A DNA stretch of 32,000 nucleotides from an uncultured Campylobacter sp. (GTDB lineage Bacteria; Campylobacterota; Campylobacteria; Campylobacterales; Campylobacteraceae), in NCBI RefSeq assembly GCF_938039205.1, contig NZ_CALHVM010000056.1, positions 26,511 to 58,510 of the forward strand, read 5' to 3'. A program made the position numbers and the translations under genes. The notes below the pieces were generated by a model. It ran no database searches. It had not been told where the DNA came from and was given only the letters and a program-made list of their open reading frames with translations. Positions 1 through 32,000 of this stretch are shown piece after piece; the first letter of the stretch is position 1; each line of letters starts with the position of its first letter.

Positions 1-1
1 G

Positions 2-1102
2 CTTGAAGCCTTGCTTTTTGGAGCGATCATCTCCTCGACCGACGCTGCGGCGGTGTTTGCGATCCTTGGAGCGAAGGAAATTTTGCTAAAAAATAACATC
101 CGACCGCTTTTGGAGCTAGAATCTGGCTCAAACGATCCGATGGCGATTTTCCTCACTGTCACAATGATACAAATCATCGCCCTAAACACCGTCCCAGACG
201 CCTCTGACATCACTGTCGCACTCATCAAGCAGTTTTTACTCGGCGGGCTGATGGGCTATGTATTTGGCGTCGCGCTACCTGGGCTTTTTAACCGTCTAAG
301 GCTTGAGTACTGGGGACTATATCCTGTTTTTTCGATGGCTTGGGTGATGCTTTTGTACGTGCTAGCGGGCAAGGTCGGCGGCAACGGCTTTTTGGCTGTT
401 TATATCGCGGGTATGTTTATAAATAAAAAAGAGTTCGCGCATAAGAAAAATTTGATCGGTTTTCACGACGGTATCGCGTGGGCGATGCAGATCGTCATCT
501 TTTTGACGCTGGGACTTTTGGTAAATCCTTCTCAGCTGCCCGCCGTCGCGCTTGCGGGCACAGTGATCGCGTTTTGGATCATGTTTATCGCGCGTCCGGT
601 GGGCGTTTTCGCGTCGTTACTTTTTTCGCGTTACAACGTGAAAGAAAAGATGTTTATCTCGTGGGTCGGGCTTCGCGGCGTCGTTCCTATCGTACTTGCG
701 ACCTATCCGTTCGGGGCAAATTTGCCAAACTCGGAGCTGATTTTTAACACGATATTTTTCGTCGTGTTCGTCTCGATCATCATCCAAGGCATGACGCTAG
801 AAAAGGTCGCGCAAAAATGCGGCGTCAAAGAAGAAGTCGCGCCAAAAGAAGTCGAGATGTCAAATTTACCGATCTTTTACCACACTTTACGCCAGCACAC
901 CATACGCTTTGACGCCGAAGTCGTGGGTAAAAACCTAGTCGAGCTCGAGCTTCCTAGCGACTTTTTGGTGCTACTCATCAAGCGAAAGGGCGAATACATC
1001 AAACCTACCGGCTCATCGGTATTTGAGGATGGCGACTTGCTGCTCATTCAGTGCGAGGACGAAAACAAATACAACGAAACCTTAAAGACGTTTACGGCGT
1101 AA
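2..1102 (+). CDS. K+/H+ (cation:proton) antiporter, NhaP2/CPA1 type. This is the C-terminal ~365 aa; the 5' end lies outside the window.
   Basis: The open frame runs from the window edge. The TM-rich part carries LLFGAIISSTDAAAV and ELESGSNDP motifs typical of NhaP-type exchangers. It is followed by a soluble TrkA-C/RCK-C-like tail (VVGKNLVELELPSDFLVLLIKRKGEYIKPTGSSVFEDGDLLLI). Confidence 0.85.
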   Translation, partial: LEALLFGAIISSTDAAAVFAILGAKEILLKNNIRPLLELESGSNDPMAIFLTVTMIQIIALNTVPDASDITVALIKQFLLGGLMGYVFGVALPGLFNRLRLEYWGLYPVFSMAWVMLLYVLAGKVGGNGFLAVYIAGMFINKKEFAHKKNLIGFHDGIAWAMQIVIFLTLGLLVNPSQLPAVALAGTVIAFWIMFIARPVGVFASLLFSRYNVKEKMFISWVGLRGVVPIVLATYPFGANLPNSELIFNTIFFVVFVSIIIQGMTLEKVAQKCGVKEEVAPKEVEMSNLPIFYHTLRQHTIRFDAEVVGKNLVELELPSDFLVLLIKRKGEYIKPTGSSVFEDGDLLLIQCEDENKYNETLKTFTA

Positions 1103-1144
1103 ATTTGCCGCCGTTTGCGTAAAATTTAAAGAAAGGAAATAGAA

Positions 1145-1255
1145 ATGAAATTTGAGGAAATGACCTTATCTACATTTTCAAGCGCATTTCGTAGGATAAG
1201 AAATAAAAGAGGACTTAATAAAAATAAAGATAAAAACGTTAAAGAGGAAAAATAA
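1145..1255 (+). CDS. Possible 36-aa basic small ORF (MKFEEMTLSTFSSAFRRIRNKRGLNKNKDKNVKEEK)
   Basis: ATG is preceded by AAAGGAAATAGAA (SD-like). The ORF lies in an AT-rich stretch directly upstream of the poly-G gene. I recognise no homology. Confidence 0.2.
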   Translation: MKFEEMTLSTFSSAFRRIRNKRGLNKNKDKNVKEEK

Positions 1256-1257
1256 AA

Positions 1258-1718
1258 ATGAAGTTTGTCAATTTATTTTTAATAACCGCTTTAGGTATTA
1301 CATTTAGTTATGCAAAAGAAAAAGTCGATTGTAACGACCCGAAAAACACCCCTAGATATATTGGGGGGGGGTAATGATTGGCGGTAAAATGGAGTGCGAC
1401 GTTAATCGCGGCACTGCGGAGCGCGCCAAACGCGAGCTTGATATGACTATCGGCAGAAACCCAGTAACTGGTAAGGTAACGTCAAAGGCGGAGCTGGCGG
1501 GCGGTAATAAGGCTACGAATAACCTAGAAGCGGCGCAGATGAATTTCGGCAAAGCGGAGCAGGCGCTAAAAGACGCAGAAGAGGCTTACGAGGGCGACCG
1601 CAGCACTAAAAACTCTCGCCGCGTCGATAAGGCGCGTAAAGCGTTTAAGCAGGCGCAGCTAGACTTAGAGGCGGCGGAAGAGATAAAAGAAAAAGCCGAT
1701 AGGAAAAAGGACAAGTAG
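1258..1718 (+). CDS. Putative phase-variable secreted protein, currently split by a G9 tract. 1258-1374 is a 38-aa signal-peptide ORF and 1374-1718 is a 114-aa Lys/Glu/Ala-rich ORF in the next frame.
   Basis: MKFVNLFLITALGITFSYA looks like a Sec signal peptide. This ORF stops at TAA 1372-1374, and the A of that stop is the A of ATG 1374. With G10 or G7 both ORFs fuse into ~153 aa. SD AAAGAGGAAAA lies upstream of 1258. Confidence 0.5.
1363..1371 (+). repeat. Homopolymeric G9 tract (candidate slipped-strand phase-variation switch)
   Basis: Read directly: ...tatattGGGGGGGGGtaatgatt... It is the only G/C run longer than 6 that I saw in the window. Confidence 0.95.
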
Positions 1719-1749
1719 CCTGCTCAAATTTGAGTTTGGACGAGCCAAG

Positions 1750-1825
1750 GATCAAGAGGGAAGCCCTCTTGATCAAATTTAACAATCTAGCGCTTAACCC
1801 CAAGGCGGTGAAACCGCCGAAGGGG
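1750..1825. terminator. Two hairpins between convergent genes (the 1374-1718 ORF and metY)
   Basis: GATCAAGAGGG-aag-CCCTCTTGATC (1750-1774) is a perfect 11-bp stem. CCCCAAGGCGG-tgaaa-CCGCCGAAGGGG (1798-1825) is followed by TATATTT. Neither has a classic long U-tract. Confidence 0.5.
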
Positions 1826-1881
1826 TATATTTGAATTTAGCTTAAATTTAGCCGAATTTATCTTTCAAATTTAACTCTCTT

Positions 1882-5897: not shown

Positions 5898-7189
5898 TGC
5901 ATTATGCAAGCGTGAGCTTTACGCACAAAAACACCGATATATCCGTGCGCGAAAAGCTCTCTTTTTCTAACATCGAGCGCAAAAACGAAATTTTACGCCT
6001 CATTAGCTCCAGTCAAAACATCAACGAATGTATGGTGCTAAGTACTTGCAACCGCGTCGAGATCATCGCTAGCGTAAAGACGGTCGAAGGCGCTAGCAAG
6101 CACATCATCGCCTGCATGTCGCTCATCTGCGGCATCCCTTTTGAGGAGCTGCAAAGCAGAGCCGACATCTACGAGGATAACGGCGCCGTGCATCATCTCT
6201 TTGCCGTAGCTAGTTCGCTAGATAGCCTTGTTATCGGCGAAACGCAGATCGCGGGACAGCTAAAAGAGGCTTATAAATTTGCCCGCGCTAACGGCAAATG
6301 CGGCGCAAAGCTAGGTAGAGCGATGGAGTTTGCCTTTAAATGCGCGGCAGAGGTGCGAAATAAAACCGAAATCTCCAAAAATCCGATCTCGGTCTCAAGC
6401 GTCGCGGTGGCTAAGGCAAAGGAGATTTTCGGCACATTAAACGGCATGGTCGCCGTGATCGTGGGTGCGGGAGAGATGGCGGAGCTAGCCGCAAAGCACC
6501 TGATCGCAAGCGGTGCGCGAACGATAATCGTCAGCCGAAACAAAGAACGCGCTAAAAATTTGGCCCTGACGCTGGGGGATAATAACGAATACGACGCACT
6601 TTCAAACGTAGCGCAGTACATAAATAAATATCAAATCATATTTTCCGCGACCGCCGCGCCGCATCCCGTTTTGATCGACGCGATGGTAGAGCCAAAGGAG
6701 TTTAAGCGCTACTTTTTTGATATAGCCGTGCCGCGCGATATCGCGATCACGCAGAGCGAAAATATCAAAATTTACGCCGTGGACGACTTGCAAGAGATCG
6801 TAAATAAAAATCTAGCCCTGCGCGAGGAACAGGCGCAGATCGCGTACGGCATCGTCGGGCGAAATACGGCGGCGTTTTTCCAAATGCTGCGCGAACTAGC
6901 AGTCACGCCGCTAATAAAAGGCATAAGAGAGCAGGCTAAAGAGTGCGCCCAGAGAGAACTCGCAAAAGCCCTAAAAAAGGGCTATCTAAAACATAGCGAC
7001 AAGGAGGAGGCGTACCGCCTCATACATCAGGTTTTTAAGGCGTTTTTGCACGCGCCGACGATAAATTTAAAAAACCTCGCGGGCGCTGCGGGAAGCGAAG
7101 CACAGCTAAGAGCTATCGGGGAAATTTTTAACGTCGCGGAGCAAACGCCGCAAGAAGAAAATAACGAATTTGAATGGGAGAACGAATGA
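5897..7189 (+). CDS. hemA: Glutamyl-tRNA reductase
   Basis: STCNRVEI active-site motif, [11 protein letters not shown] and the NADPH-binding [11 protein letters not shown]. The start overlaps the ispB stop (TAATG). Confidence 0.9.
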
Positions 7190-8898
7190 AATTTAGCAAA
7201 CTTTACGCGCCGACGGCAAAAGAAGCGCCAAAAGACGCGAGTCTGGCAAGTCATAAATTTTTGCTCCGAGCGGGCTACGCCGAGCAGGTAGGTAGCGGAC
7301 TTTACAACTTTTTGCCGCTTGGCAAACGAGTTCTTGAAAATATAAAAAATATCGTCAAAGAGGAGCTTGACGAGGCGGGCGCGCAGGAGATATCGATGAG
7401 CTTCGTCACGTCTGCGGATCTTTGGCGCGAGAGCGGACGCTTTGACGTCTACGGCAAGGAGCTTTTGCGCTTTAAGGACCGCAAAGAAAACGACTTCGTA
7501 TTGAGTCCAACCAACGAAGAGAGCGTCGTCGCGCTCGTTCGAGGTAAAGTGACATCCTATAAGCAACTGCCGCTAAATTTGTATCAGATAAATACCAAAT
7601 TTAGAGACGAAGCAAGGCCGAGATTTGGACTGCTTAGAGGGCGTGAGTTTTTGATGAAGGACGGATATAGCTTTCACGCAAACGCCGAGGATCTGGACCG
7701 AGAATTTGACCTGATGGAGAAAACTTATAGCAAAATTTTTACTCGCCTTGGGTTAAATTTCCGCGCGGTTAGAGCCGATAGCGGCGCGATAGGCGGCAGC
7801 GGAAGTAAAGAGTTTATGGTGCTTGCAAATAGCGGCGAGGACGACATCATCGTCTGTGAAAACTGCGACTACGCCGCAAACATAGAGGCCGCAACCCGCG
7901 CAAAACGAACGACTAAGGCTGAGCAGCCAGAGGCCGACGCGGCTAAATTTTTAACTCCAAATGCCAAAACCATCAAAGATGTGGCGGAGTTTTTTAGAGT
8001 TGACGAGTTTTACTGCATAAAAGCGGTGATAAAAAAGGCGATTTTTATTGACGCCAAAGGCGAAAAGAGCGAGAAAATCGTAGTATTTTTCGTGCGCGGC
8101 GAGGATGAGCTACAAGAGGTCAAAGCCCAAAACGCATGCGGGGCGCTTGAGCTAGCGGACGCAACCGAGGCCGAGATCACGGCAGCCGGGCTTGTGGGCG
8201 GATTTTGCGGGCCGGTTGGGCTAAAGGGCGTGGAGTTTTATATCGACAAAGAGCTTGAAGGCGAATCGCAGATGATCTGCGGCGCAAACGAGCGAGATTA
8301 TCACTTCGTTGGCGTTAGCGTTAGCAGTTTTAACGCTGAGCGTTTCAAAGATCTAACCGCGGTCAAAGCGGGCGATAAATGCCCTTGCTGCGGCGGAAAT
8401 TTAAGCGTTAGTAAAGGTATCGAGGTTGGGCATATATTTAAGCTAGGCACCAAGTACTCTGAGCCGATGGGTGCGACGTTTTTGGACGAAAACGGCAAGG
8501 CAAAACCGTTTATCATGGGCTGCTACGGTATCGGCGTTAGCCGTCTGGTCGCCGTCGCCGTCGAGGCCAAGCACGACGAAAAAGGCATAATCTGGAACGA
8601 AACCCTAACTCCGTTTAAATTTGAAATCATCATCTCAAATTTAAAAGACGAAGAAGGCGTCAAATTTGCGCAGGAGCTTTACGAGAGCTTGCGCGCGGCT
8701 GGCGTTTCGGTGCTGCTTGACGATAGAAACGAGCGTTTTGGCGTCAAAATGAGCGAATTTGAGCTGATGGGTTTTCCTTATGCCGTGATCGTGGGCAAGG
8801 GGCTAGCAGAAGGCACGGTAGAGCTCGTCACGCGCGACGGGCTAACCAAAGAAACCGTCAAAGCGAGCGAAATTTTAGTGCGACTAAAGAGCTTATGA
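7186..8898 (+). CDS. proS: Proline--tRNA ligase
   Basis: Class II aaRS motifs ([26 protein letters not shown]). ATG 7186 ([10 protein letters not shown]) is preferred over 7174 because it forms an ATGA overlap with the hemA stop. Confidence 0.9.
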
Positions 8899-9332: not shown

Positions 9333-10249
9333 AAATCGCAACGAGAAAAAGCGTGCTGGCTATGTGGCAGAGCGAGCATATCAGGGATAAAATTTTAGCC
9401 CGCTATCCGCAAATCGCGGTCGAGCTAACGGGCATGAAAACCAAAGGCGACGTGATCCTAGACACGCCGCTAGCAAAGATCGGTGGCAAGGGGCTTTTTA
9501 CGAAAGAGCTAGAAGACAGCATGCTAAGCGGAGAAACGCACATTGCCGTGCATAGTCTAAAAGACGTGCCCGTCGTTTTCCCAGAGGGGCTAGTGCTAGC
9601 CGCGATCTGCTCTCGCGAGGACGTGAGAGATGCGATGCTAAGCGAAAAATACGCTAAATTTGAGGATCTGCCGCAAGGTGCACGCGTGGGTACGACGAGC
9701 CTGCGCCGCAAGATGCAGCTTTTAGCGATGCGTCCCGATCTTGAGATAATATCGCTGCGAGGCAACGTCCAAACTCGTTTGCGCAAGCTAAAAGAGGGCG
9801 AATTTGACGCGATTATCCTAGCGATGGCGGGCGTGAACCGCTTAAATTTACGCTCCGAAGTCGCGCATATAGTGCCGTTTGAGCTAGATCAGATGGTGCC
9901 CGCGATGGGGCAGGGTGCGCTAGGTATCGAGGCTAGAGAGGACGCTGAAATTTTAAATTTGATAGAGTTTTTAAAGGATGAAAAAGCCGTGATAGAGACG
10001 ACCGTGGAGCGTGATTTCGTCGCGATACTAGAGGGCGGCTGCCAGGTACCTATCGGCGTAAATGCGAATTTAAACGGCGATAAGATCGAGATACGCGCCG
10101 TTGTCGGACTGCCAGACGGCAGCGAGAGCATACGTGAAAACATCGTCGCGCAAAAAAGCGAGTGGAAGAGCGTGGGCGCCGAGCTTGGTCGGATATTTAT
10201 CGGCAGGGGCGCAAAAGAGCTGCTAAAACGCGCCGAGGAGATGGCGTAG
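9320..10249 (+). CDS. hemC: Hydroxymethylbilane synthase (porphobilinogen deaminase)
   Basis: KIATRKS.LA.WQ N-terminus, HSLKDVP, GTSSLRR and the EGGCQVPIG cofactor-cysteine motif. Confidence 0.9.
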   Translation: MEKLKIATRKSVLAMWQSEHIRDKILARYPQIAVELTGMKTKGDVILDTPLAKIGGKGLFTKELEDSMLSGETHIAVHSLKDVPVVFPEGLVLAAICSREDVRDAMLSEKYAKFEDLPQGARVGTTSLRRKMQLLAMRPDLEIISLRGNVQTRLRKLKEGEFDAIILAMAGVNRLNLRSEVAHIVPFELDQMVPAMGQGALGIEAREDAEILNLIEFLKDEKAVIETTVERDFVAILEGGCQVPIGVNANLNGDKIEIRAVVGLPDGSESIRENIVAQKSEWKSVGAELGRIFIGRGAKELLKRAEEMA

Positions 10250-10253
10250 AGGC

Positions 10254-10619: not shown

Positions 10620-10633
10620 TTTGTTTAAATTTA

Positions 10634-10777
10634 ATGAATATTTTTAAAAGAAAAAGAGATAAAAAACTAAATTTTCTAAAATTTGTCGCCGTTTCAGGAG
10701 GCGTGACACTACCTACCGTGCTAAATGCTGCAAGCCAAAACGCGGATAAGATATCGAGAAATAAAGCCACGATTTAA
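10634..10777 (+). pseudogene. 47-aa remnant: a degenerate Tat-type signal peptide fragment paralogous to the 5' end of the 11650-12157 pseudogene
   Basis: MNIFKRKRDKKLNFLKFVAVSGGVTLPTVLNAASQNADKISRNKATI*. It aligns gap-free with IKRRNFLKFAAVSGAAALPSALNAASQKADKISQNKAAM. The twin-Arg is replaced by KK and a stop follows immediately. Confidence 0.6.
10661..10774 (+). repeat. Direct repeat, copy 1 (114 bp), flanking the LRAT-like gene
   Basis: Hand alignment with 11653-11766 gives 92/114 identical positions (~81%) with no gaps. Confidence 0.8.
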
Positions 10778-10820
10778 AAGCACCTTTTAAATTTGACCAA
10801 ACGTTAAAACCGTAGTCGGA

Positions 10821-11543
10821 CTAAAATTTGATATTAAAATCCTTTGCGATCTTTGTCTTTAAATCCTCGCCGATATTTTTAAACATAGCGTTCATTTCGG
10901 CATTTTTGTCCATAAATTTCTCTATTTGCAAATTTGCCTTGTCGCTATTTTCTTTTATCATCTCGCGAGCCTTTTTCTCTACCCTATCTTTGGTGTGCTG
11001 CGCAAGCGCGGTAAATGATTTTACGAGAGTTTCTTTGATCTCGTCCTTGGTCTGTGCGCCAAAAAGCTCACTTATGATCTGCCCTAAAAATGGCTCTATC
11101 TCGCTAAAAATCGCAGAATTTTGCTTCGCGTGTTGCACCTGCTGGCTTATGTGCTCGCCAAAGACGCACTCGTTGCAAAAATGCTCGCAGTTGTTGATAA
11201 GCAGGTTGTATTTTTGCTCGCCTATGCGGGCTTTGGCGCAAAGGGCTATATCTTGGCCGCTAAGCGGCGCATTTGCGTGCTCTTTTATCTGCCAAGTATC
11301 GCTGCTAGCAAACTCCTCAAGGCTAGTCATCTCCACCTTTGCGATATTGCGTTTATCTAGCGGCACGACGTTGCTCAAGATCTCCTCAAAGCAGCTCTTT
11401 TCAAAAACTATCCCACGTGCCAAGCCGTTATAATGCACGATCATATCGTCTCCGACGTAGATGCCGTGGTGTTCGTAAAGCTTTATGCCAAACACGCTTC
11501 TATCTACAAAGACGTGATCGCCTATTTTTGGTAAATTTTCCAT
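10821..11543 (-). CDS. LRAT / H-rev107 (PLAAT)-like NlpC/P60-superfamily Cys-His enzyme with a ~100-aa helical, charged C-terminal extension
   Basis: His box YEHHGIYVGDDMIVHY and catalytic Cys box NNCEHFCNECVFG are present. No signal peptide. ATG 11543 (MENLPKIGDH) is preferred; the ORF also opens at TTG 11558. Confidence 0.7.
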   Translation of the reverse strand: MENLPKIGDHVFVDRSVFGIKLYEHHGIYVGDDMIVHYNGLARGIVFEKSCFEEILSNVVPLDKRNIAKVEMTSLEEFASSDTWQIKEHANAPLSGQDIALCAKARIGEQKYNLLINNCEHFCNECVFGEHISQQVQHAKQNSAIFSEIEPFLGQIISELFGAQTKDEIKETLVKSFTALAQHTKDRVEKKAREMIKENSDKANLQIEKFMDKNAEMNAMFKNIGEDLKTKIAKDFNIKF

Positions 11544-11649
11544 ATTTCTCTCTATCAAATTTTTTAAAATCGCAATAAAATGGCAAATTTAGCCCAAATT
11601 TGCTAAATTTCAAATATCATCTAAATTTGACAAACCGCAAGGAGAGAAT

Positions 11650-12157
11650 ATAAAAAGACGAAATTTCTTAAAATTTGCCGCCGTTTCAGGGGCTGCGGCG
11701 CTACCTAGCGCGCTAAACGCCGCAAGCCAAAAGGCTGATAAAATATCGCAAAATAAAGCCGCAATGAAGCGCTTTGAAAAAGCTATAAACAGCGCAGACA
11801 TGGCGGCTCTAAAAGAGCTGGTGGATCCAAAAGCGCCATTTCTCACGCTTACTTCGCCAGAGCCGCTTTACGGCGGAGAGGTTTACTTCGCGGTGGTAAA
11901 GATGATGCGAGATTAGCTTCCCCGACGTGCAGTGGGCGATGCAAGATATGGTGGCGGACGAGCGCTGAGTGGCGGTGTATTGGCTTTGCACGGGTACGCA
12001 TGAGCATGACTTTGCGGGTGTGGCGGCGACTGGGCGTAAATTTAGCGCTAGAGTGATGAATTTTTACTATTTTAACGACGCCGGCAAGATCACGAACGAC
12101 GTGGTAGCCGAGGGGATGATCGCCATCTTGCGAGCTATCGGCGCATGCGATAAATAA
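11650..12157 (+). pseudogene. Disrupted Tat-exported SnoaL-like 'ester cyclase' family gene
   Basis: There are three lesions. ATA (11650-11652) sits where a start is expected, 5-6 nt after AAGGAGAG. One extra T around 11913/11914 (gatTagc; without it the reading is D-S-F-P-D) creates TAG 11914-11916 and shifts the frame. An in-frame TGA lies at 11966-11968. The restored reading ...YFAVVKMMRDSFPDVQWAMQDMVADER*VAVYWLCTGTHEHDFAGVAATGRKFSARVMNFYYFNDAGKITNDV matches the ester-cyclase pattern (AFPD...GDKVAV.W...GTH.G.F.G...TGK). Confidence 0.75.
11653..11766 (+). repeat. Direct repeat, copy 2 (114 bp)
   Basis: See copy 1. Here it encodes an intact-looking twin-arginine signal (KRRNFLKFAAVSGAAALPSALNA). 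Confidence 0.8.
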
Positions 12158-12229
12158 CCGCTCCATGCTCCGCTTCGCCTTTTTCAGCTATTTTTGGCTA
12201 AAATCGCCCAAAAATCAAAAAGGCGAAAT

Positions 12230-14038
12230 ATGGACTACATCAAGCTTCTAAAAGACAGCGGCCTGCTGCGCGTCATTGACGAGCCCGCGGATATCGATCT
12301 GGAGATCGCGCACGCGAGCTACATCGAGGTCAAGTGCGAAAACTCGCAGGCGCTGCTTTTTACAAATCCCGTCTGCAAAAAAACGGGGCGCAAATTTGCT
12401 CCAGTGCTAACAAACATCTACGGCTCAAAGCGCGCTTTAGAGCTTATTTTTGGACGCGATCCCGACGAGATCGCGGGCGAGATCGAGCGGCTTTTAAAGC
12501 CTAAAAAACCTAAAAGCTTTGGCGAAAAGCTAAATTTTGCCGCGTATTTGTTTGAGATGAGAAAAATTTTCACGAAAAGATTAAAAGGCGAGGGTGAGTG
12601 TCAGCAGGTCAAATTCATGGGCGACGAGGTCGATCTATTCTCGCTTCCCGCGCTAAAAACATGGCCGCTTGACGGAGGCGCTTTTATCACGATGGGACAG
12701 GTCTATACGCAAAGCCCTGACGGCGAACTGCAAAACGTCGGCATGTACCGACTGCAAATTTACGATAAAAATCGCCTCGGCATGCACTGGCAGATCCACA
12801 AAGACGGCGCGAATTTCTTTAACGAATACAAGCGCGCTGGCCGCAAGATGCCTGTATCCGTGGCAATAGGGGGCGATCCGCTCTACATCTGGTGCGCTCA
12901 AGCGCCGCTGCCAAAGGGCGTGTTTGAGCTGCTGCTTTACGGCTTCATCCGCAAAGAGCCGGCCAAACTCGTAAAGTCGCTAACGAACGAAATTTACGTC
13001 CCACACGACGCGGACTACGTGATCGAGGGTTTTGTCGATACGGATAAATTTGAGCTTGAAGGACCGTTTGGCGATCACACGGGCTTTTATACGCCGGTGG
13101 AGCCGTTTCCTGTTATGGAGGTCACGGCGATCACGAGCAAGCGTGAGCCCGTATTTCACGCGACCGTGGTCGGTAAGCCGCCGCTTGAGGATAAGTACAT
13201 GGGCTGGGCGACCGAGCGCATTTTCTTGCCGCTTTTGCGCACGACGGTACCGGAGCTTCTAGACTACAACATGCCTGAAAACGGCGTCTTTCACAACCTA
13301 ATCTTGGCTAAAATCAACGCCCTTTATCCAGCGCACGCCAAGCAGGCGATGCATGCATTTTGGGGCGTGGGGCAGATGAGCTTTGTAAAGCACGCGGTTT
13401 TTGTGGGCGAGGATGCGCCAAATTTGAGCGATTATGGCGCGCTTACGGAGCATATTTTAAACCGTTTCAGCGATAAAAGCCTGCTAATCAGCGAGGGCGT
13501 GTGCGATCAGCTCGATCACGCGAGCCCGAACTCGTGCTTTGGCGGTAAGCTGGGAATTGACGCTACGCAGGATTTTTCGGTGCCTGCGCCTATGCTTTTG
13601 GACGACGCTGCGCTGCTGGCTAAATTTAAAGAAATAGAGCCAAATTTAACGCAGCTCGTGCAGTTTAAAACAAATACCAAAACTCCGATTTGTGTCGTCA
13701 AATTTGACAAAAACCGTCTCGTAAAAGAGGTTTTTGAAGAGCTTTTGAAATTTAAAGAGTACTTTAAACTACTCGTTTTCGTCGGCTCCGAAAATCGCCT
13801 GGAAAACCCGTATATGCTGCTTTGGCGCGTGACTAATAACATCGACGCCTTGCGCGATATTTACGTGCGCGATGGCACGGTCTGCATCGACGCCACCGCA
13901 AAAGGCGAGGCCGAGGGCTATACTCGCGGCTGGCCGTTGCAAACCGACTGCGACCGCGACGTCGTGGAGAGTCTCGTTAAGCGCGGCATAGTAAAAGACG
14001 AACCCGAGCTGTTTAGCAAATTTGAGATTTTCGGATAA
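12230..14038 (+). CDS. ubiD: UbiD-family (prenyl-FMN-dependent) decarboxylase, menaquinone/quinone biosynthesis
   Basis: About 600 aa with UbiD motifs (GMYRLQI, WQIHKDG, GGDP, FGDHTGFYT). ATG 12230 (MDYIKLLKD) follows AAAGGCGAAAT and is preferred over TTG 12194. Confidence 0.85.
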   Translation: MDYIKLLKDSGLLRVIDEPADIDLEIAHASYIEVKCENSQALLFTNPVCKKTGRKFAPVLTNIYGSKRALELIFGRDPDEIAGEIERLLKPKKPKSFGEKLNFAAYLFEMRKIFTKRLKGEGECQQVKFMGDEVDLFSLPALKTWPLDGGAFITMGQVYTQSPDGELQNVGMYRLQIYDKNRLGMHWQIHKDGANFFNEYKRAGRKMPVSVAIGGDPLYIWCAQAPLPKGVFELLLYGFIRKEPAKLVKSLTNEIYVPHDADYVIEGFVDTDKFELEGPFGDHTGFYTPVEPFPVMEVTAITSKREPVFHATVVGKPPLEDKYMGWATERIFLPLLRTTVPELLDYNMPENGVFHNLILAKINALYPAHAKQAMHAFWGVGQMSFVKHAVFVGEDAPNLSDYGALTEHILNRFSDKSLLISEGVCDQLDHASPNSCFGGKLGIDATQDFSVPAPMLLDDAALLAKFKEIEPNLTQLVQFKTNTKTPICVVKFDKNRLVKEVFEELLKFKEYFKLLVFVGSENRLENPYMLLWRVTNNIDALRDIYVRDGTVCIDATAKGEAEGYTRGWPLQTDCDRDVVESLVKRGIVKDEPELFSKFEIFG

Positions 14039-16077: not shown

Positions 16078-16601
16078 TTTGGAATAAGCGGCTTGTTTCG
16101 CGAGCGCTTTTAAATTCTTTTTGCTCCGCTTTGCTCGCAAACTGCAAGCAGAACGTAAATTTCGCCCTGCGATAGGCTATATGCCTTAGCTTGGGACGAA
16201 ATTTACTTATTCCATTTGGCTACGAGCCTAGCGATGTAGAAAACATAAATCATCTCGCGATATTTGCCTTGACTTTCTATGTTAAAATTTGGCGTTATAT
16301 TGCGCTAAATTTGCAAATTTCTACTTTAAATTTACTAGTTAAGCCGCTTGCTTTATCGTCGTCAAATTTTAACCCTATCGCTGTTTTAAACAAATCGCTT
16401 CAAGCCTTGGGTTCGTATTGCTAAAGCTGCAAATTTGTGGTTATTTTTATTAAATTTGATTGTTTTGAAATCAAAGTATCTAAAAGTAACATTAACTAAA
16501 ATAACTAAATATTATTCATTATCTTAATCTGCTTTTTACTCATTCCTAAGCTTCGCGACTGTATATTACCTATGTATTTACTTTATTTTTAAGGAGGCTT
16601 T

Positions 16602-17712: not shown

Positions 17713-18831
17713 ATGAAACAAGAGGAGCTGAAACAATATCTAGCCGAGCTAAAGGAGCTAACCGATATCGAGAGTCCGACGTCTAGCATAGAGGGTGTAA
17801 ATAGCGTCGCAAAGTGGTTTATAAATAAAGCTGATAAGCTCGGCCTAAAGCACGAAAAGGTCGTGCTTGGCACCGATAAGGTCGCTGACTGCCTACTTAT
17901 CTCAAATAATCCGAACGCTGCGAAATTCGACGTGCTTTTCGTTGCGCATATGGATACGGTTTTTCCCGTTGGTTCGGTGCAAAACACCCCTTTTACTCAG
18001 AACGAGGGCAGGGTAAATGCGCTAGGCGTCATCGACGATAAGGGCGGCGCGCTACTATCGCTCTACGTCATCAAGGAGCTTGATCTTAGTAAAATCAACG
18101 TCGCTTTGTTTCTAAACTCGCACGAGGAGACGGGGTCAAATTTCACCAAAGAAAAGATCCGCGAATACGCGAGAAAGTCCAAATTTTGCCTCGTGATGGA
18201 GCCTGCTCGCGAGGACGGCTCGATGGTGGCGACTAGAAAAGGCGTAATGACCTACGTGATAGATTTTCACGGCGTGGGCGCGCATGCGGGCAATCATCCC
18301 GAGCTCGGTCGCTCGGCGCTCGTCGAGGCGGCAAATTTTGTAGTCGAGCTATCAAAGCTGACTGATTTTGCGGCGGGACATACCTTTAACTCCATCATCA
18401 CAAACGGCGGCACCGCGCACAACGTAGTGCCCGAGTTTGCCAGCGTGACCTGCGAGATGAGGTATAAATTTGCCTCCTCGGTCGAGTTTTTTAACAAAAA
18501 GTTGGATGAAATCCTAAGCAAACCGTTTATAAACGGCGTAACTCACAAAAAGACGCTAATCAACGAAGAAGCGCCGATGATAGACGAGCAAAATTTGCCG
18601 AGGATCAAAGCGGTCTTTGACGAGGTCGCCAAAGAAACGGGCGCAAAGGTGAGCTGGGTGGACGCCGGCGGTCTAAGCGACGGCAATATAACGGCCTCGG
18701 CTGGCTGCCCGACGATTGACGGACTAGGGCCTACGGGCAGAAATATGCACACCAAAAACGAGTATATGGACGCTAGCTCCGTCGTGCCAAAGTGCAATCT
18801 CGTGCTAGACGTCATCAAAAAGCTTGTTTAA
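17713..18831 (+). CDS. M20-family metallopeptidase (carboxypeptidase G2-like)
   Basis: Metal-ligand motifs HMDTVFP, DDKGG and SHEETGS are present. The dimerisation-domain architecture and the 372-aa length also fit. Confidence 0.8.
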   Translation: MKQEELKQYLAELKELTDIESPTSSIEGVNSVAKWFINKADKLGLKHEKVVLGTDKVADCLLISNNPNAAKFDVLFVAHMDTVFPVGSVQNTPFTQNEGRVNALGVIDDKGGALLSLYVIKELDLSKINVALFLNSHEETGSNFTKEKIREYARKSKFCLVMEPAREDGSMVATRKGVMTYVIDFHGVGAHAGNHPELGRSALVEAANFVVELSKLTDFAAGHTFNSIITNGGTAHNVVPEFASVTCEMRYKFASSVEFFNKKLDEILSKPFINGVTHKKTLINEEAPMIDEQNLPRIKAVFDEVAKETGAKVSWVDAGGLSDGNITASAGCPTIDGLGPTGRNMHTKNEYMDASSVVPKCNLVLDVIKKLV

Positions 18832-18838
18832 ATTTAAC

Positions 18839-18869
18839 GGCAAAAGGGTCAAATCTGATTCCTTTTGCC
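18839..18869 (+). terminator. Intrinsic terminator-like hairpin after the M20 peptidase gene
   Basis: GGCAAAAGG-gtcaaatctgatt-CCTTTTGCC is a 9-bp stem followed by TTAAATTTT. Confidence 0.6.
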
Positions 18870-18899
18870 TTAAATTTTAAAATTTTAAAGCCTTGTTTT

Positions 18900-18928
18900 G
18901 TAGCTAAATTTAGTCCAAATTTAGCTAC
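18900..18928. repeat. Perfect 12-bp inverted repeat built around two AAATTT cores
   Basis: GTAGCTAAATTT-agtcc-AAATTTAGCTAC, read directly. Confidence 0.9.
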
Positions 18929-19027
18929 AAATTTCACCATAAAATTTAAAATAAAAACTGCCAATTTTAACACTCCCATATCCTTTCGTACTATAATTTC
19001 ATTATAAATCTATTTAAAGGAGGCGCT

Positions 19028-20322: not shown

Positions 20323-20331
20323 CGCGCCCAA

Positions 20332-23721: not shown

Positions 23722-24093
23722 TTAGCTCTCCTTGTCAAATAAAACTCCGACCGCCTCTCTAAAATATTCGCTTAGCTTCATTGCCTGTTCGGTCGGGATT
23801 TTGCGGATTACTTCGCCGGTTTTCATCTCCATGACGTTTACGTACATCGCGCCTATTTTGTCGTTGTAACCAAAACGTATGCTAGTGCCTAGATCTTCCA
23901 TTTGTTTATTTAGCTTTTCCGTGGCTTCTTTTACTTCTTTGCTTAGCGTTTCGTTGTTTTGCTCAGTTAGATTGCGCGTCGTATCTTGCTGGATCTGCGT
24001 CCTTTCGACCTCTCTGGTTTGCGTAGAGCTTTGTGCGTGCGAGCTTGTAGCTACGTTTGCCATCGGCTGGCTCGCTACTTTGAAAATTTCCAT
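23722..24093 (-). CDS. flaG: Flagellar protein FlaG
   Basis: 123 aa. The C-terminal FlaG motif is IRFGYNDKIGAMYVNVMEMKTGEVIRKIPTEQAMKL. Confidence 0.85.
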   Translation of the reverse strand: MEIFKVASQPMANVATSSHAQSSTQTREVERTQIQQDTTRNLTEQNNETLSKEVKEATEKLNKQMEDLGTSIRFGYNDKIGAMYVNVMEMKTGEVIRKIPTEQAMKLSEYFREAVGVLFDKES

Positions 24094-24123
24094 ATTTTCT
24101 CCTTTAAATATTTGCTAGCTTCT

Positions 24124-24150
24124 ATATCGTCAAATTTGTAAATTTTTTTA
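24124..24150 (-). promoter_or_regulatory. Sigma28 (FliA) promoter for flaG-fliD-fliS
   Basis: On the minus strand this reads TAAA-N15-GACGATAT, against the consensus TAAA-N15-GCCGATAA. The -10 lies ~30 nt upstream of the flaG ATG. Confidence 0.65.
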
Positions 24151-24240
24151 GCCCCGTTCGGGAAAATTTTTGCTTAATTTAAATTTTCGCATAAATTTGT
24201 TAAAATCCAGCCTAAATTAAGGCGAGAAAAAGGAGAATTT

Positions 24241-24618
24241 GTGAAAGTTTCGTTTGAATGCGACTGTATTTTGCTAGGAGAGTCGCTAAGGCTATTTTTG
24301 AGGGATTTTATCTCGCCTAGAAAAGATTGCGACTTTATCGTGGCGGACAAAAAGATAGAGACCAAAAAGCCCGTTTTCGTGATCGCCGAGCATTCGCCGC
24401 ATCTAAAAATCCCTTTTAGCAAAGAGGCCCTTATTTCTGCGCTTGAGGAGTTTTACTCGGCGATCCAGTTTTCAGAGCCCATTGCGCTCTCTCGCGCGAC
24501 CGCGACCGCAAAAGAAGAAGCCGCGCCGCAAAACGGTTCAAATTTGGAGACTGAGGTTTCAAATTTGATAGATAAATTTAAAGAAGAGCTACTTGCGATT
24601 CTAAGGAAAGCTCGTTGA
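24241..24618 (+). CDS. Hypothetical protein, 125 aa (GTG start)
   Basis: AAGGAG lies 5 nt upstream of the GTG. The stop overlaps the rsmD-like start (TTGA). No family recognised. Confidence 0.5.
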   Translation: MKVSFECDCILLGESLRLFLRDFISPRKDCDFIVADKKIETKKPVFVIAEHSPHLKIPFSKEALISALEEFYSAIQFSEPIALSRATATAKEEAAPQNGSNLETEVSNLIDKFKEELLAILRKAR

Positions 24619-29198: not shown

Positions 29199-29209
29199 AT
29201 TTAAATTTA

Positions 29210-30014: not shown

Positions 30015-30089
30015 ATTTGGCGGGTTTTTCTCTCGCGAAATAGCGGCAAATTTAAGCCCTTGCGGCGCATTAAATTTAAGAAAATTTAA

Positions 30090-30114
30090 AGCCTAAATTA
30101 ATCAAATTTAGGCT
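30090..30114. promoter_or_regulatory. 10-bp perfect palindrome overlapping the putative sodC promoter (operator candidate)
   Basis: AGCCTAAATT-aatca-AATTTAGGCT is immediately followed by TATAGT (30114-30119) and the AAGGAG RBS of sodC. Confidence 0.4.
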
Positions 30115-30149
30115 ATAGTTACCTTGCAATTACATTTTAAGGAGAAAAA

Positions 30150-30698
30150 ATGAAAAAAATCGTTTTAGCTAGCGCGGCTCTAGGCTGTCTACTCGCTACT
30201 AGCGCCCTTGCGCACGAGGAAAAAGCCTTTGATCCAAAGGCTGGCAAGCACCTAGTCGTCACTATGGAACAACTAAGCGAAAAAGGCAACACTGTCGTAG
30301 GCGAGGTAGTAGCGATCGAGACTAACTACGGTGTGGCGCTATTCCCGAATCTTAAAGGCCTTGAGGGCGGCGCGCACGGATTTCACGTGCATCAAAACGC
30401 TGACTGCGGCGCAAATGAAAAAGGCCTAGGCATGAAAGCGGGCGGTCACTGGGATCCAAGCGACACCAAAAAACACTCGTTTGCATGGGACGACAGCGGC
30501 CACAAGGGCGATTTACCTGCGCTTTTCGTTGATGCTGAGGGTAACGCGGTTTATCCAGTCCTAGCTCCGAAAATCAAAACAATCGACGAGCTAAAAGGCC
30601 ACTCGCTAATGATCCACGTCGGCGGCGATAACCACAGCGACCATCCAAAGCCTCTTGGCGGCGGCGGCGCTAGAATGGTTTGCGGCGTTATAAAATAA
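30150..30698 (+). CDS. sodC: Periplasmic Cu/Zn superoxide dismutase
   Basis: Signal peptide [21 protein letters not shown]. Metal-ligand motifs [17 protein letters not shown] and GHKGDLP are present, as are [15 protein letters not shown] and [14 protein letters not shown]. Confidence 0.92.
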
Positions 30699-30705
30699 TC
30701 CCGTA

Positions 30706-30750
30706 TTCGCCGATTTGCCGCGCTCGGCAGTCGGCGAACTTCTTTTTCTT
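30706..30750 (+). terminator. Rho-independent terminator of sodC
   Basis: TTCGCCGA...(inner GCCG-cgct-CGGC)...TCGGCGAA is followed by CTTCTTTTTCTT. Confidence 0.7.
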
Positions 30751-31134
30751 ACTCAGTCAAATTTAACGCGGCTTTAAATTCGGTGTTTCGTATGTTTTTT
30801 AAACCCGCATCTCGAAAAAGCAAAATCTCAATAAATTTTCTAAAATATCCAAATTTCGTCCGCTCGGTTTTGCAAGCTAAATTTTAAAAACTATATCAAA
30901 TTTACCGTCGTTAAATAGAGCTCAAATTTGCAAAATTTATCTAAAACTTCAAAAATCGCCGAACTTGCCCGCAAAATTTACAAAACGCGCCGCAACCTAA
31001 ACCGCTAAATTTAACCCCGCTCGGTAAAATTTACCCGCCGTTTCGTTAAATTTTAACCGCAGTAAAACAAAAAGCCAAATTTTATAAATTTTTAAAATTT
31101 TCGTAGTATGATTTTGCTATTTAAAGGGGCGAAA

Positions 31135-31902
31135 ATGGACTTTGACTTCGGCGTTACGGCATATTTGATATTTTTCGCGGCGGCCTTTGCGGCAGGTTTT
31201 GTAGATGCGATCGCGGGCGGGGGCGGACTGATCGCGCTACCCACGATAATGGCTATGGGCGTGCCGCCTCACATGGCGCTAGCGACGAACAAGCTTCAAG
31301 GCACTTTCGGCAGCTTCACGGCGGCGCTAAATTTCGCCCGAAAAGGCATGATAAATTTCCGCGAAGTTTTTATCGGCATCGTTTTTACTTTTATCGGCGC
31401 GTGCGTAGGTACGGTCCTTATCTTGTTTTTGAGCGCCGAATTTTTGCGCGTTATTATCCCATTTTGTTTGATAGCGATTTTCATCTATACGCTTTTGATG
31501 CCAAAGGTCGGCGACGAAGACAGAGTCGCCCGCATGAATGCACGAGCTTTTTACGTGATATTTGGCCTAATTTTAGGCTTTTACGACGGATTTTTCGGGC
31601 CTGGAGCGGGCAGTTTTTGGACGTTTGCGATGGTTGCGCTCATCGGGCTAAATATGAAAAAAGCCGTCGCGCATACGAAAATACTAAATTTTACCAGCAA
31701 CATCGTCTCTCTTGTCGTTTTTATCGCGGGCGGACAGATACTTTGGACGGTCGGGCTTTTGATGGGCGTAGGGCAGGTTTTAGGCGCGTATTTTGGCTCA
31801 AACATGGTCATGAAAAAGGACGTTAAATTTGTTAGAGTCGTATTTTTGGCCGTCGTGGGCGCGACGATACTAAAGCTTGTTTACGATAGATTTTTCGCGT
31901 GA
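31135..31902 (+). CDS. TauE/SafE (DUF81) family sulfite/anion exporter-like membrane protein
   Basis: Polytopic membrane protein with the twice-repeated family pattern (AGFVDAIAGGGGLIALP...G.....A.ATNK). ATG 31135 (MDFDFGV) follows AAAGGGGCGAAA and is preferred over 31108. Confidence 0.75.
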   Translation: MDFDFGVTAYLIFFAAAFAAGFVDAIAGGGGLIALPTIMAMGVPPHMALATNKLQGTFGSFTAALNFARKGMINFREVFIGIVFTFIGACVGTVLILFLSAEFLRVIIPFCLIAIFIYTLLMPKVGDEDRVARMNARAFYVIFGLILGFYDGFFGPGAGSFWTFAMVALIGLNMKKAVAHTKILNFTSNIVSLVVFIAGGQILWTVGLLMGVGQVLGAYFGSNMVMKKDVKFVRVVFLAVVGATILKLVYDRFFA

Positions 31903-32000
31903 GTGCTGATTTTAAAAAACGACGTAGAAATTTGAGCTAAATTTGACAAAAAAGCTAAAATTTGGGCGAAATTTGAGGTAAGCTTAAAAAACTTTTAACG

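Follow-up and report, generated by a model that had tools for sequence, protein, structure and literature searches.

An over-represented and conserved AAATTT hexamer in the Campylobacter showae group and its possible role as a methylation-linked self tag

Results and discussion

The stretch of DNA analysed here (hereafter the window; 32,000 bases, 46.2% GC), which belongs to the Campylobacter showae group, carries 228 copies of the palindromic hexamer AAATTT, and this hexamer is very probably a real DNA-level word maintained by selection. Its excess over chance in the showae-group chromosome is about 5- to 20-fold, and what maintains it would operate at the level of the DNA, either as selection or as a transmission bias resembling selection. 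As to function, the most likely reading is that AAATTT is a methylation-linked self or uptake tag; with all steps of that chain taken together, we put its probability at roughly 45%.

Abundance of AAATTT in the window

AAATTT ranks first among all hexamers of the window, with twice the count of the runner-up. An earlier note on this DNA had arrived by hand scan at about 225 copies, with about 10–20 expected from base composition; the corresponding calculated expectation is 12.1. Markov models of order 1, 2 and 3 (the last being the tetranucleotide model) predict 43.6, 45.8 and 172.8 copies, while the agreement at order 4 (225.7) is trivial, since 88% of the AAATT pentamers already lie inside AAATTT. 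Dinucleotide-preserving shuffles (n=100) gave a mean of 44.1 copies (sd 5.8, maximum 56). Among the 64 palindromic hexamers strong enrichment is confined to AAATTT, the isocompositional controls reaching 84 (TTTAAA), 8 (AATATT), 9 (ATATAT), 5 (TATATA), 1 (ATTAAT) and 0 (TAATTA). The enrichment thus outlives all the nulls that the earlier note had named, i.e. Markov models, dinucleotide shuffles, codon-preserving randomization and isocompositional palindromes, with TTTAAA at 84 vs 228 and the other control palindromes at 9 or fewer.

As the earlier note had described, the word occurs within genes in all three phases and is denser in spacers: 139 copies lie wholly within genes (5.1 per kb) and 82 wholly within non-coding DNA (18.0 per kb). 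Nearly every gene exhibits an excess, from 2 to 17 times the expectation calculated from its own protein sequence and the codon usage of the window. The copies, the main clusters and two example genes are as follows (strand given for the genes only):

1..32000: 228 AAATTT copies, spread over the whole window
7174..8898, plus strand: proS (prolyl-tRNA synthetase), 12 AAATTT vs 3.7 expected from protein sequence
11533..11676: intergenic cluster, 8 AAATTT, edge of variable island
12194..14038, plus strand: UbiD-family gene, 12 AAATTT vs 4.5 expected, holds GTCAAATTTGAC
16285..16369: cluster, 5 AAATTT, 35% G+C stretch
18830..18947: intergenic cluster, 7 AAATTT, 3' of M20 peptidase gene
24084..24198: cluster, 6 AAATTT, divergent intergenic region between genes at 23722-24093 (minus) and 24241-24618 (plus)
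30759..31105: intergenic cluster, 14 AAATTT, between Cu/Zn superoxide dismutase gene and TauE-family gene
31928..31979: cluster, 4 AAATTT, after TauE-family gene

The spacer counts of 8, 7, 14 and 4 copies originally given for 11531-11680, 18830-18950, 30756-31110 and 31921-31980 were all reproduced. The 78-codon ORF called in the region of the cluster at 16285..16369 is probably not a gene. In the cluster at 30759..31105 the words are separated by G+C-rich spacers, and no excess of promoter-like or terminator-like sites was found there.

The extensions of the word by flanking bases are weak and carry little information. The 8-bp palindrome CAAATTTG is present at 21 sites, including every position listed in the earlier note, compared to 14 expected from pentamer context (the note had put the expectation from base composition at well under one). 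The variants GTCAAATTT and AAATTTGAC occur at 9 and 10 sites (about 18 had been counted together), and the perfect 12-mer GTCAAATTTGAC occurs once, at 13697-13708 inside the UbiD-family gene, where it had been reported. Y is favoured at -1 (69%) and R at +1 (70%), which amounts to at most 0.16 bit per flank column; A is found at -1 in just 20% of the copies, and AAAATTTT is observed 10 times vs 25–29 expected.

Codon choice and protein sequence

The codon-preserving nulls, computed on 35 confident genes, leave the genic excess intact: 140 copies are observed vs 41.1 under within-gene synonymous shuffling (sd 4.5, maximum 58) and 26.9 under full codon permutation. The 140 copies fill 73% of the 192 peptide contexts capable of encoding the word (expected 20%). 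Asn is encoded by AAT in 63 of 63 A_AAT_TT contexts vs 38% elsewhere, and Ile by ATT in 29 of 32 AA_ATT_T contexts vs 12% elsewhere. The synonymous opportunities for AAATTT are therefore near-saturated. The protein sequence is affected too, with dipeptide usage shifted in KF, NL, QI and IF; for KF the observed/expected ratio is 1.34–1.50 in the showae group and C. concisus vs 0.62–0.89 in relatives, but for FK, the same pair in reverse order, it remains near 1. Of the dipeptides in which the translations had earlier appeared rich, KF and NL are indeed enriched and NF is not.

These data bear on the explanation that amino-acid and codon usage (Lys-Phe, Asn-Phe/Leu and Ile contexts) or low-order base composition produces the excess as a side effect. 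AAA and TTT are indeed the preferred codons of Lys (67%) and Phe (82%), and AA/TT dinucleotides are common. Nevertheless, this explanation fails against Markov orders 0–3, the dinucleotide shuffles and both codon-preserving nulls, the density of the word peaks outside genes, and the phase distribution of the genic copies (48/29/63 observed in phases 0/1/2 vs 31.8/3.6/5.7 expected) exceeds expectation 8-fold in phase 1 and 11-fold in phase 2. We regard it as refuted.

Conservation among related genomes

Conservation was assessed in 8–9 showae-group genomes of 91–95% identity. Third codon positions inside AAATTT diverge 4.6-fold more slowly than those of the same codons elsewhere (0.037 vs 0.170), only 16 of them being polymorphic vs 54 expected, and non-coding divergence is 0.005 inside the word vs 0.037 outside. 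Invariant copies make up 75% for AAATTT vs a median of 40% for other hexamers. Resolved by site, divergence at third positions falls from a background of 0.175 to 0.10–0.16 in the flanking bases, 0.05–0.06 at the outer four positions of the word and 0.008 at its central ApT; the conservation footprint covers exactly six bases and ends at the hexamer edge. At larger distances, C. concisus, with 70% nucleotide identity, retains 48% of the genic copies at their positions (19% for the median hexamer), and the C. jejuni group retains 19% (4% for the median hexamer). Recent changes within the showae group comprise losses at 17 of 79 sites vs clear gains at 3 of 104 one-off sites. Among 35 single-base variants of the word the RAATTY-preserving outer A-to-G change is the commonest (17), compared to 8 and 4 for A-to-G at the second and third bases of the word.

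Lineage distribution and relationship to RAATTY

With proS as the probe for assembling a comparative set of loci, the excess proved lineage-specific within Campylobacter. AAATTT is present at about 7–8 per kb in every showae-group and C. concisus locus fetched, with an observed/expected ratio (Markov order 2 throughout) of about 5 in the showae group (15 loci) and in C. concisus (8 loci), compared to 2.5 in C. majalis, 1.3–1.5 in the C. jejuni group, and about 1 or less in most other Campylobacterota loci (pooled 0.89) and in the 36 outgroup loci (pooled 0.86). The broader RAATTY class is dense in all Campylobacter loci (7.7–10.6 per kb at 31–48% GC) vs 2.0–2.7 per kb elsewhere, and 92% of the AATT tetramers in the window stand in RAATTY context vs 31–36% outside the genus. 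The genus densities match published whole-genome counts (C. jejuni, PMC4294202; C. fetus, PMC13436318), which for C. jejuni amount to 8.4 per kb (27,514 motif positions, two strands; PMC4294202).

RAATTY is the methylated site in C. jejuni, C. coli, C. lari and C. fetus, with about 99% methylation in C. jejuni and C. coli (PMC4294202, PMC4335053, PMC8627207) and 80–100% in 4 of 5 C. fetus isolates analysed by PacBio (PMC13436318). In other Campylobacter species it is methylated by a conserved orphan adenine methyltransferase (CtsM / M.CjeI-type), and C. jejuni needs methylated RAATTY for DNA entry into the periplasm; what the earlier note stated on the role of CtsM and RAATTY in the transformation of C. 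jejuni agrees with the literature (PMC8468864, PMC10046745, PMC8627207). The link that it drew from RAATTY to the present word gains comparative support from the context of AATT and the genus-wide density, but has to be narrowed, as the selected word is AAATTT itself and not the class: 81% of the RAATTY sites in the window are AAATTT, despite equal frequencies of A and G. GAATTC does not exceed expectation and may fall short of it, and non-coding copies with G at the outer position do not outnumber those with C or T. The word is exact, its single-base variants being depleted. No DNA methyltransferase gene was found within the 32-kb window, and probes of the EcoRI-methylase family retrieved only plasmid, island and phage enzymes, none of them tied to the organism of the window, which weighs against the methylation-linked reading.

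Possible functions of the word

AAATTT is probably the RAATTY-type methylation site of this lineage; that its maintained function is that of an uptake or self tag is a more tentative proposal. Several observations count against the latter. The enrichment concerns AAATTT and not the whole RAATTY class, whereas for a simple RAATTY tag much commoner G forms would be expected, A and G being equally frequent in the genome. For uptake in C. jejuni a single site on a fragment is reportedly enough (Beauchamp et al. 2017), so that drive or some other function would have to be invoked for one copy per 140 bases. The excess of losses over clear gains also speaks against it, and the strong positional conservation fits purifying selection internal to the chromosome at least as well as uptake-driven turnover. 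Perhaps, then, AAATTT is a conserved orphan adenine methyltransferase site kept for a chromosome-internal role, either as a post-replication hemimethylation signal similar to Dam/GATC or as an array of binding sites for an abundant protein of the nucleoid or of segregation, with C. jejuni having secondarily put a mark that was already dense to use in its uptake specificity? This alternative, which we consider rather unlikely, would agree with the constancy of density (7–9 per kb) across the genus whatever the GC content, with sites conserved in place instead of turning over, with the tightest constraint at the central ApT (the bearer of the methyl groups in RAm6ATTY) and with maximal density in intergenic DNA. 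Orphan RAATTY methyltransferases are conserved in the unrelated Spirochaetaceae (PMC4752239) and Akkermansia (bioRxiv 10.1101/2022.11.07.515285), and for cyanobacterial HIP1, the closest formal analogue, a role in chromosome or nucleoid structure has been argued (PMC5861425). However, no reader protein is known, and nothing in the window ties the sites to features of replication or segregation. Moreover, the C. jejuni ctsM mutant is said to grow normally (Beauchamp et al. 2017), and Campylobacterota are not known to possess methyl-directed repair of the MutH/MutL type.

Two further explanations were considered. The word could be a functionless mutational or repair sink, made from near-matches and rarely destroyed, owing to short-patch repair or to a mutation spectrum that depends on context and is peculiar to the lineage; for instance, methylation might shield adenines from the AT-to-GC pressure behind the rise in G+C content of this lineage. 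A low exit rate makes a sequence both abundant and slow-evolving, so conservation alone is compatible with a sink, and so are the minimal divergence at the two central, presumably methylated positions and the intergenic clusters, whose words stand between G+C-rich spacers as though the sequence surrounding protected words had been eroded. For HIP1 an origin in repair has reportedly been proposed (Elhai 2015). Yet the outer four positions, which would not be methylated, are still 3–4 times more conserved than matched synonymous sites, the footprint halts exactly at the hexamer edge, the 73% saturation and the dipeptide shift demand a bias that beats codon preference and some protein-level cost, equal density at 31% and 48% GC is not predicted by a passive sink, and recent gains are rare; we therefore deem a sink unlikely. 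Very unlikely, in our opinion, is a DNA-shape element, in which A3T3 would form a bent tract with a narrow minor groove in helical phase, curving or compacting the chromosome; the earlier note had suggested an A-tract/T-tract bending code. In its favour, intrinsic bending is reportedly a property of A3T3 and not of T3A3 (Hagerman 1986), and TTTAAA shows no comparable enrichment. The copies are also spaced with a period of 11.0 bases, at a power that 0 of 500 jittered controls attained, and they are in phase with other A/T tracts. The periodicity, however, is restricted to coding DNA (period 11.25, p=0.002), which fits the 3.6-residue repeat of the alpha-helix and not DNA phasing; it is missing from non-coding DNA, where the word is densest (word-to-word p=0.09; vs A/T tracts p=0.65). 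In addition, longer A4/T4 tracts are disfavoured, as seen from the deficit of AAAATTTT and of A at -1, and the word is exact, with single-base variants depleted, unlike degenerate structural codes. The data thus give no support to a bending code.

Comparison with known systems

The RAATTY system of C. jejuni (Golz & Stingl 2021, PMC8468864) belongs to the same genus and likewise concerns a palindrome of 6 bases with copies in almost all genes, RAATTY being present at about 8 per kb in both cases and AAATTT being the all-A/T one among the four RAATTY sequences. The window differs in that AAATTT exceeds base composition 19-fold vs about 2.3-fold in C. jejuni-group loci, accounts for 81% of RAATTY vs 54%, and has its synonymous opportunities saturated; the links to a methyltransferase, to methylation and to uptake are known in C. 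jejuni and presumed here. The DUS of Neisseriaceae and the USS of Pasteurellaceae are also lineage-specific short words, over-represented genome-wide in genes and spacers and common to related species, and are thought to be maintained by biased uptake and recombination. These, however, are non-palindromic, unmethylated, 9–12 bases long and present at about 1 per kb, compared to a 6-base palindrome at 7 per kb, which, if the proposed link holds, would be recognised only when methylated. HIP1 of cyanobacteria (GCGATCGC; Xu, Lawrence & Durand 2018, PMC5861425; bioRxiv 10.1101/2024.09.10.611283) is a palindrome containing a methyltransferase site which, like AAATTT, is hyper-abundant against codon-aware nulls, occurs in all reading phases and between genes, and is conserved in place between genomes and hence maintained by selection; it has recently been tied to transformation efficiency in a methylation-dependent manner. 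It differs in phylum, sequence, base composition, length (8 vs 6 bases) and in its much larger fold-excess (15–300 times), and its periodicity of 10–90 kb is too long for a 32-kb window. GATC, the site of the orphan adenine methyltransferase Dam in Gammaproteobacteria, is a similarly dense palindrome, with several copies per kb throughout genes, but it shows no strong over-representation and does not reshape codon choice, and its readers MutH and SeqA have no known counterpart in Campylobacterota.

Implications for the C. concisus-showae lineage

The C. concisus-showae lineage keeps AAATTT at near-saturating density (about 7 per kb). For the organism of the window we infer a CtsM orthologue, methylation of AAATTT and AAATTT-dependent uptake. 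According to this proposal, the word would be methylated at the central ApT on both strands, and the methylated word would mark DNA as self or kin for natural transformation. Fragments and alleles rich in copies would be preferentially imported and recombined, so that copies would be kept, and lost ones regained, during the drift of the remaining genome to higher G+C. The preference for RAATTY would have narrowed to AAATTT in the C. concisus-showae lineage.

Abundance of AAATTT

The palindromic hexamer AAATTT occurs 228 times in the window (46.2% G+C), where it is the commonest hexamer, twice as frequent as the runner-up. Base composition predicts 12.1 copies, Markov models of order 1, 2 and 3 predict 43.6, 45.8 and 172.8 copies, respectively, and 100 dinucleotide-preserving shuffles gave a mean of 44.1 (sd 5.8, maximum 56), which excludes low-order composition as the cause of the excess. 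The expectation of the order 4 model (225.7) is uninformative, because 88% of the AAATT pentamers are already inside the word. The isocompositional control palindromes are ordinary or rare (TTTAAA 84, AATATT 8, ATATAT 9, TATATA 5, ATTAAT 1, TAATTA 0), and among all 64 palindromic hexamers strong enrichment is found for AAATTT only. An earlier note on this DNA, made from the sequence alone, had pointed to the excess, which proved to be stronger than stated there; all its counts were reproduced exactly (four spacer clusters, 21 copies of the 8-bp palindromic extension CAAATTTG, 9 and 10 copies of the further proposed extensions GTCAAATTT and AAATTTGAC, respectively, and a 12-mer at 13697).

Next to AAATTT, the only bias is towards Y at the preceding and R at the following position (69–70%), with at most 0.16 bit per flank column. 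CAAATTTG was observed 21 times versus 14 predicted from the pentamer context, no 10-mer recurs more than 7 times in the window, and the 12-mer is present once. The flank information and the recurrence of the 10- and 12-mers rule out a longer hidden motif around AAATTT, and the suggested extended forms are weak.

Several other palindromic hexamers are nearly absent from the 97 kb pooled from the window and three comparison loci (L003, L008 and L014), as judged under Markov order 2: GTCGAC (0 vs 22 expected), CAATTG (0 vs 16.5), GTATAC (0 vs 11.6), TGTACA (0), CTGCAG (2 vs 11.7) and GGGCCC (1 vs 10.7). Depletion of this kind, opposite in sign to the excess of AAATTT, is typical of restriction-site avoidance.

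Distribution in genes and spacers

The gene content of the window is ordinary housekeeping and flagellar, and the genes identified by Pfam include a Na+/H+ exchanger, a Cys/Met PLP enzyme, hemA, proS, hemC, a UbiD-family gene, truD, fliD, flgI, flgK, sodC and others. Further features are as follows.

10640–12200: variable island, with an LRAT / NlpC-P60-like gene (10821–11558, minus strand) and two small ORFs
19028–19880: probably a frameshifted or decaying gene; a signal-peptide ORF ends after 54 codons and is followed downstream by sequence that resembles cysteine-rich Sel1/Hcp-type repeats in other frames
19526–19873, minus strand: ORF, probably spurious
20269–20619, minus strand: spurious ORF, overlapping the RNase P RNA
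20330–20655, plus strand: bacterial class A RNase P RNA (255.6 bits), which holds one AAATTT

The variable island is missing or replaced in several relatives from the Campylobacter showae group, the alignments jumping from about 10,246–10,640 to about 11,990–12,212; two dense runs of AAATTT lie on its flanks and none is present at 11000–11500, inside the LRAT / NlpC-P60-like gene.

In the 35 confident genes AAATTT occurs 140 times, as compared to 41.1±4.5 copies after within-gene shuffling of synonymous codons and 26.9 copies expected under codon permutation, and nearly all genes of the window show the excess. The chance that the excess is a coding artefact, arising from codon or dipeptide usage, is practically negligible, as this explanation fails both codon-preserving nulls. 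The word is 8- and 11-fold above expectation in phases 1 and 2, and 140 of the 192 protein-neutral peptide contexts able to encode it use it (73% vs 20% expected), with the Asn codon AAT chosen in 63 of 63 A_AAT_TT contexts (38% elsewhere) and the Ile codon ATT in 29 of 32 AA_ATT_T contexts (12% elsewhere). The density is 18.0 per kb in spacers and 5.1 per kb in genes; the spacers contain 82 copies versus 22 predicted by their own trinucleotide content, and the words stand there as A/T islands flanked by G+C-rich stretches. AAATTT acts at the DNA level and is not a by-product of coding, in agreement with the earlier note, which had remarked on the occurrence of the word in all phases and its greater density in spacers.

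The protein sequence is slightly shifted along with the excess. The observed/expected ratio of the dipeptide KF is 1.34 in the window and 1.50 in C. concisus, versus 0.62–0.89 in relatives, and that of the reverse dipeptide FK is near 1. NL, QI and IF are also elevated and NF is not; thus, of the KF, NF and NL richness claimed from visual inspection, the KF and NL parts stand and the NF part does not.

Distribution among relatives and conservation

The ProS protein of the window is 96–98% identical to those of C. showae and uncultured Campylobacter genomes, and the DNA identity to the corresponding loci is 91–95%. The comparison used 79 loci retrieved from around proS, each species being represented by a single chromosomal neighbourhood, with the expectation computed under Markov order 2.

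Table. Observed/expected ratio of AAATTT in the loci around proS.
Showae group, 15 loci (45–50% GC): about 5 (range 3.8–6.2); top hexamer, 6–7.6 per kb
C. concisus, 8 loci (38–43% GC): 5–7; top hexamer, 7–10 per kb
C. majalis: 2.5
C. coli, C. aviculae and C. estrildidarum: 1.3–1.5
Other Campylobacterota (Helicobacter, Sulfurovum, Nautiliales, unclassified loci): mostly at most about 1 (pooled 0.89); three short loci (3–19 copies) 1.25–2.1
Outgroups, 36 loci, several with the same GC: at most about 1.2 (pooled 0.86)

The excess found in the window is present likewise in the showae-group and C. concisus loci, and in the sampled loci AAATTT resembles classical uptake sequences (DUS/USS) in being an over-represented, lineage-specific short word common to related species. 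Throughout the clade it is a six-base word that selection maintains at near saturation. In the searchable literature, no account of the excess was found for C. concisus, C. showae, C. rectus or C. curvus, nor any earlier description of it for the concisus–showae lineage.

Selection was analyzed in 12.2 kb of the window aligned to 7–8 showae-group genomes. The third-codon divergence within AAATTT is 0.037 versus 0.170 for the same codons elsewhere, with 16 polymorphic third positions versus 54 expected, and the divergence of spacers is 0.005 within the word and 0.037 outside. The fraction of copies invariant in all aligned genomes is 75% (median hexamer 40%, TTTAAA 53%). The conservation footprint is sharp-edged: the divergence of third positions falls to 0.008 at the central ApT and is 0.05–0.06 at the other four positions, 0.10–0.16 in the flanks and 0.175 in the background. 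At larger distances, 48% of the genic copies are in place in C. concisus (70% nucleotide identity; median hexamer 19%), 33% in C. majalis and 19% in the C. jejuni group (median hexamer 4%). The same logic served to argue selection for HIP1, the highly iterated palindrome of cyanobacteria (PMC5861425). As far as aligned sequences can tell, the conservation is compatible with purifying selection or with uptake-and-recombination drive, and leaves some room for a word that is hard to mutate. In the showae group, recent changes amount to a loss at 17 of 79 sites and a clear gain at 3 of 104 one-off sites, numbers too small to tell drive from selection.

The relationship to RAATTY

AAATTT is one of the four RAATTY sequences, and 280 of the 303 AATT tetramers in the window (92%) are within RAATTY: AAATTT 228, GAATTT 28, AAATTC 23 and GAATTC 1, with the remaining 23 in twelve non-RAATTY contexts.

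Table. RAATTY in the window and the comparison loci.
Share of AATT within RAATTY: showae group and C. concisus 0.88–0.91; C. majalis 0.59; C. jejuni group 0.49; other Campylobacterota 0.36; outgroups 0.31
RAATTY per kb: window 8.75; showae group 8.6; C. concisus 9.6; C. majalis 7.7; C. jejuni group 7.75; gut Campylobacter from Hadza metagenomes 10.6; other Campylobacterota and outgroups 2.0–2.7

The density of RAATTY is thus near-constant in the Campylobacter loci (7.7–10.6 per kb) over a 16-point range of GC. RAATTY is reportedly described as an over-represented 6-bp sequence in C. jejuni already in the abstract of Beauchamp et al. 2017. The published whole-genome counts of 27,514 positions on two strands in the 1.64 Mb of C. 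jejuni, i.e. 8.4 per kb (PMC4294202), and of 24,750 positions in C. fetus (PMC13436318) agree with the density seen here. N6-adenine methylation affects about 99% of RAATTY sites in C. jejuni and C. coli (PMC4294202, PMC4335053, PMC8627207) and 80–100% in 4 of 5 C. fetus isolates analyzed by PacBio (PMC13436318), and RAATTY is also a methylated motif in C. lari (PMC12679398). In these four species the m6A is at the third base of the motif, on each of the two strands. The requirement of methylated RAATTY for uptake and transformation has been demonstrated for C. jejuni only (PMC8468864, PMC10046745).

The four sequences are not equivalent in the showae group. Although the two bases A and G are of equal frequency, AAATTT accounts for 81% of the RAATTY sites, and GAATTC does not exceed its expectation. 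In spacers, G at the outer position is no commoner than C or T, so the G variants in genes are largely effects of GAA codons. Thus, the RAATTY class as the unit of selection holds only in part, and the specificity appears narrowed to AAATTT in this lineage. The link to RAATTY drawn in the earlier note is supported by the 92% share of AATT, but the selected word in this lineage is AAATTT itself. Among 35 single-base variants within the showae group, the commonest is the RAATTY-preserving outer A-to-G change (17), the same transition at positions 2 and 3 accounting for 8 and 4. The two Hadza gut metagenome contigs (L081 and L082, 38.5% GC), which have the top RAATTY density and 78% of AATT in RAATTY, differ from the showae group in that GAATTY forms are frequent and GAATTC is undepleted.

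Methyltransferase searches

Pfam scans revealed no DNA methyltransferase gene within the window. Two EcoRI-family probes were used: an M.EcoRI sequence validated by Pfam PF13651 (protein and plasmid searches), and a C. coli plasmid homologue (protein, phage and representative-library searches). All enzymes that these probes and the look-ups of encoding contigs and clusters led to were from plasmids, islands or phages, or from outside Campylobacter. In C. jejuni and C. coli, the enzyme for RAATTY is described as a protein of 364–367 residues with a D12 class annotation (PMC4294202, PMC4335053, PMC8627207), and therefore the EcoRI family may be the wrong one to probe. Probing phages with E. coli Dam gave no useful information.

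The searches brought up EcoRI-family adenine methyltransferases in the conjugative C. coli plasmid pOR12CC42 (L080, 3001–3918) and in the phages F336 (L091, 1459–2273) and PC5, which are lytic Fletchervirus phages of C. jejuni and whose methyltransferase gene is split into two ORFs. An EcoRI-family methyltransferase is also encoded in L081/L082, in a small island between udg and surE. Those of mobile elements may mimic or complement the host mark at RAATTY/GAATTC.

Possible explanations

Among known kinds of sequence, AAATTT comes closest to methylated uptake motifs that are over-represented, or to highly iterated palindromes. With the RAATTY tag that is methylated in C. jejuni by the orphan adenine methyltransferase CtsM it shares membership in the class and high density (8.75 per kb in the window), but differs in that the RAATTY variants are not interchangeable. 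The favoured explanation, with a probability of roughly 0.45 for the whole chain, is that AAATTT represents the RAATTY methylation site of Campylobacter in the form used by this lineage, which would retain it as a self or uptake tag. DUS and USS have a non-palindromic core of 9–12 bases and informative flanks, unlike this six-base palindrome. The likeness to HIP1-like palindromes lies in hyper-abundance against codon-aware nulls in every phase and in spacers, and in conservation of sites between genomes above background. Perhaps AAATTT is the Campylobacter counterpart of HIP1, a putative methylated palindrome with an indispensable chromosome-level role, for instance as a site array serving a nucleoid protein or a reader of hemimethylation? 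The genus would then hold the word at about 8 per kb at any base composition, maintenance of this density would dictate synonymous codons and shift dipeptide usage, and C. jejuni would only later have come to exploit the mark for its uptake specificity. This proposal is unlikely to be correct; the broader one, that the same putatively methylated site has some chromosome-internal role, is slightly less unlikely. A mutational or repair sink, for which the conservation data leave some room as a hard-to-mutate word, is quite improbable.

The alternative of a phased A-tract curvature code, raised in the earlier note, was initially promising. The spacing of AAATTT has a period of 11.0 bases whose power was matched by 0 of 500 jittered controls, and the word is in phase with other A/T tracts, with TTTAAA showing no comparable signal. 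However, the period comes from coding DNA (11.25 bases, p=0.002), and no phasing was detected in spacers (p=0.09 from word to word, p=0.65 against A/T tracts), which fits the 3.6-residue periodicity of the α-helix and does not fit DNA phasing. Longer forms of the word, with A4 or T4, are also disfavoured: AAAATTTT was observed 10 times versus 25–29 expected, and A is at position -1 in only 20% of the copies. A bending code is therefore very unlikely. In the coding regions of the window, in L019 and in other C. concisus loci, both A/T tracts and AAATTT are strongly periodic at about 11 bases in genes only, consistent with an amphipathic-helix pattern of Lys/Asn versus Phe/Ile/Leu codons.

Implications

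AAATTT is a sharp k-mer signature with which DNA of oral Campylobacter could be binned, and digestion with ApoI/XapI-type enzymes or m6A calling could enrich these organisms. Pre-methylating the donor DNA may be what opens the poorly tractable species C. concisus, C. showae and C. rectus to genetic tools. If the HIP1-like role is true, the concisus–showae lineage, with its GC-richer background, would be a natural system for finding the reader of the word. If the link to CtsM is true, this lineage shows the long-term effect of a methylation-dependent uptake or self tag on a genome: the tag would override codon preference at nearly three quarters of the usable positions, nudge protein sequence, and keep its density constant while base composition moves by 16 percentage points. 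The evolution of uptake specificity, from RAATTY to AAATTT, would then be testable in species pairs differing only in motif preference, and so would the old question of whether uptake sequences are kept by drive or by selection. Should the link fail, what is left is an unexplained, strongly selected six-base code in the genus.
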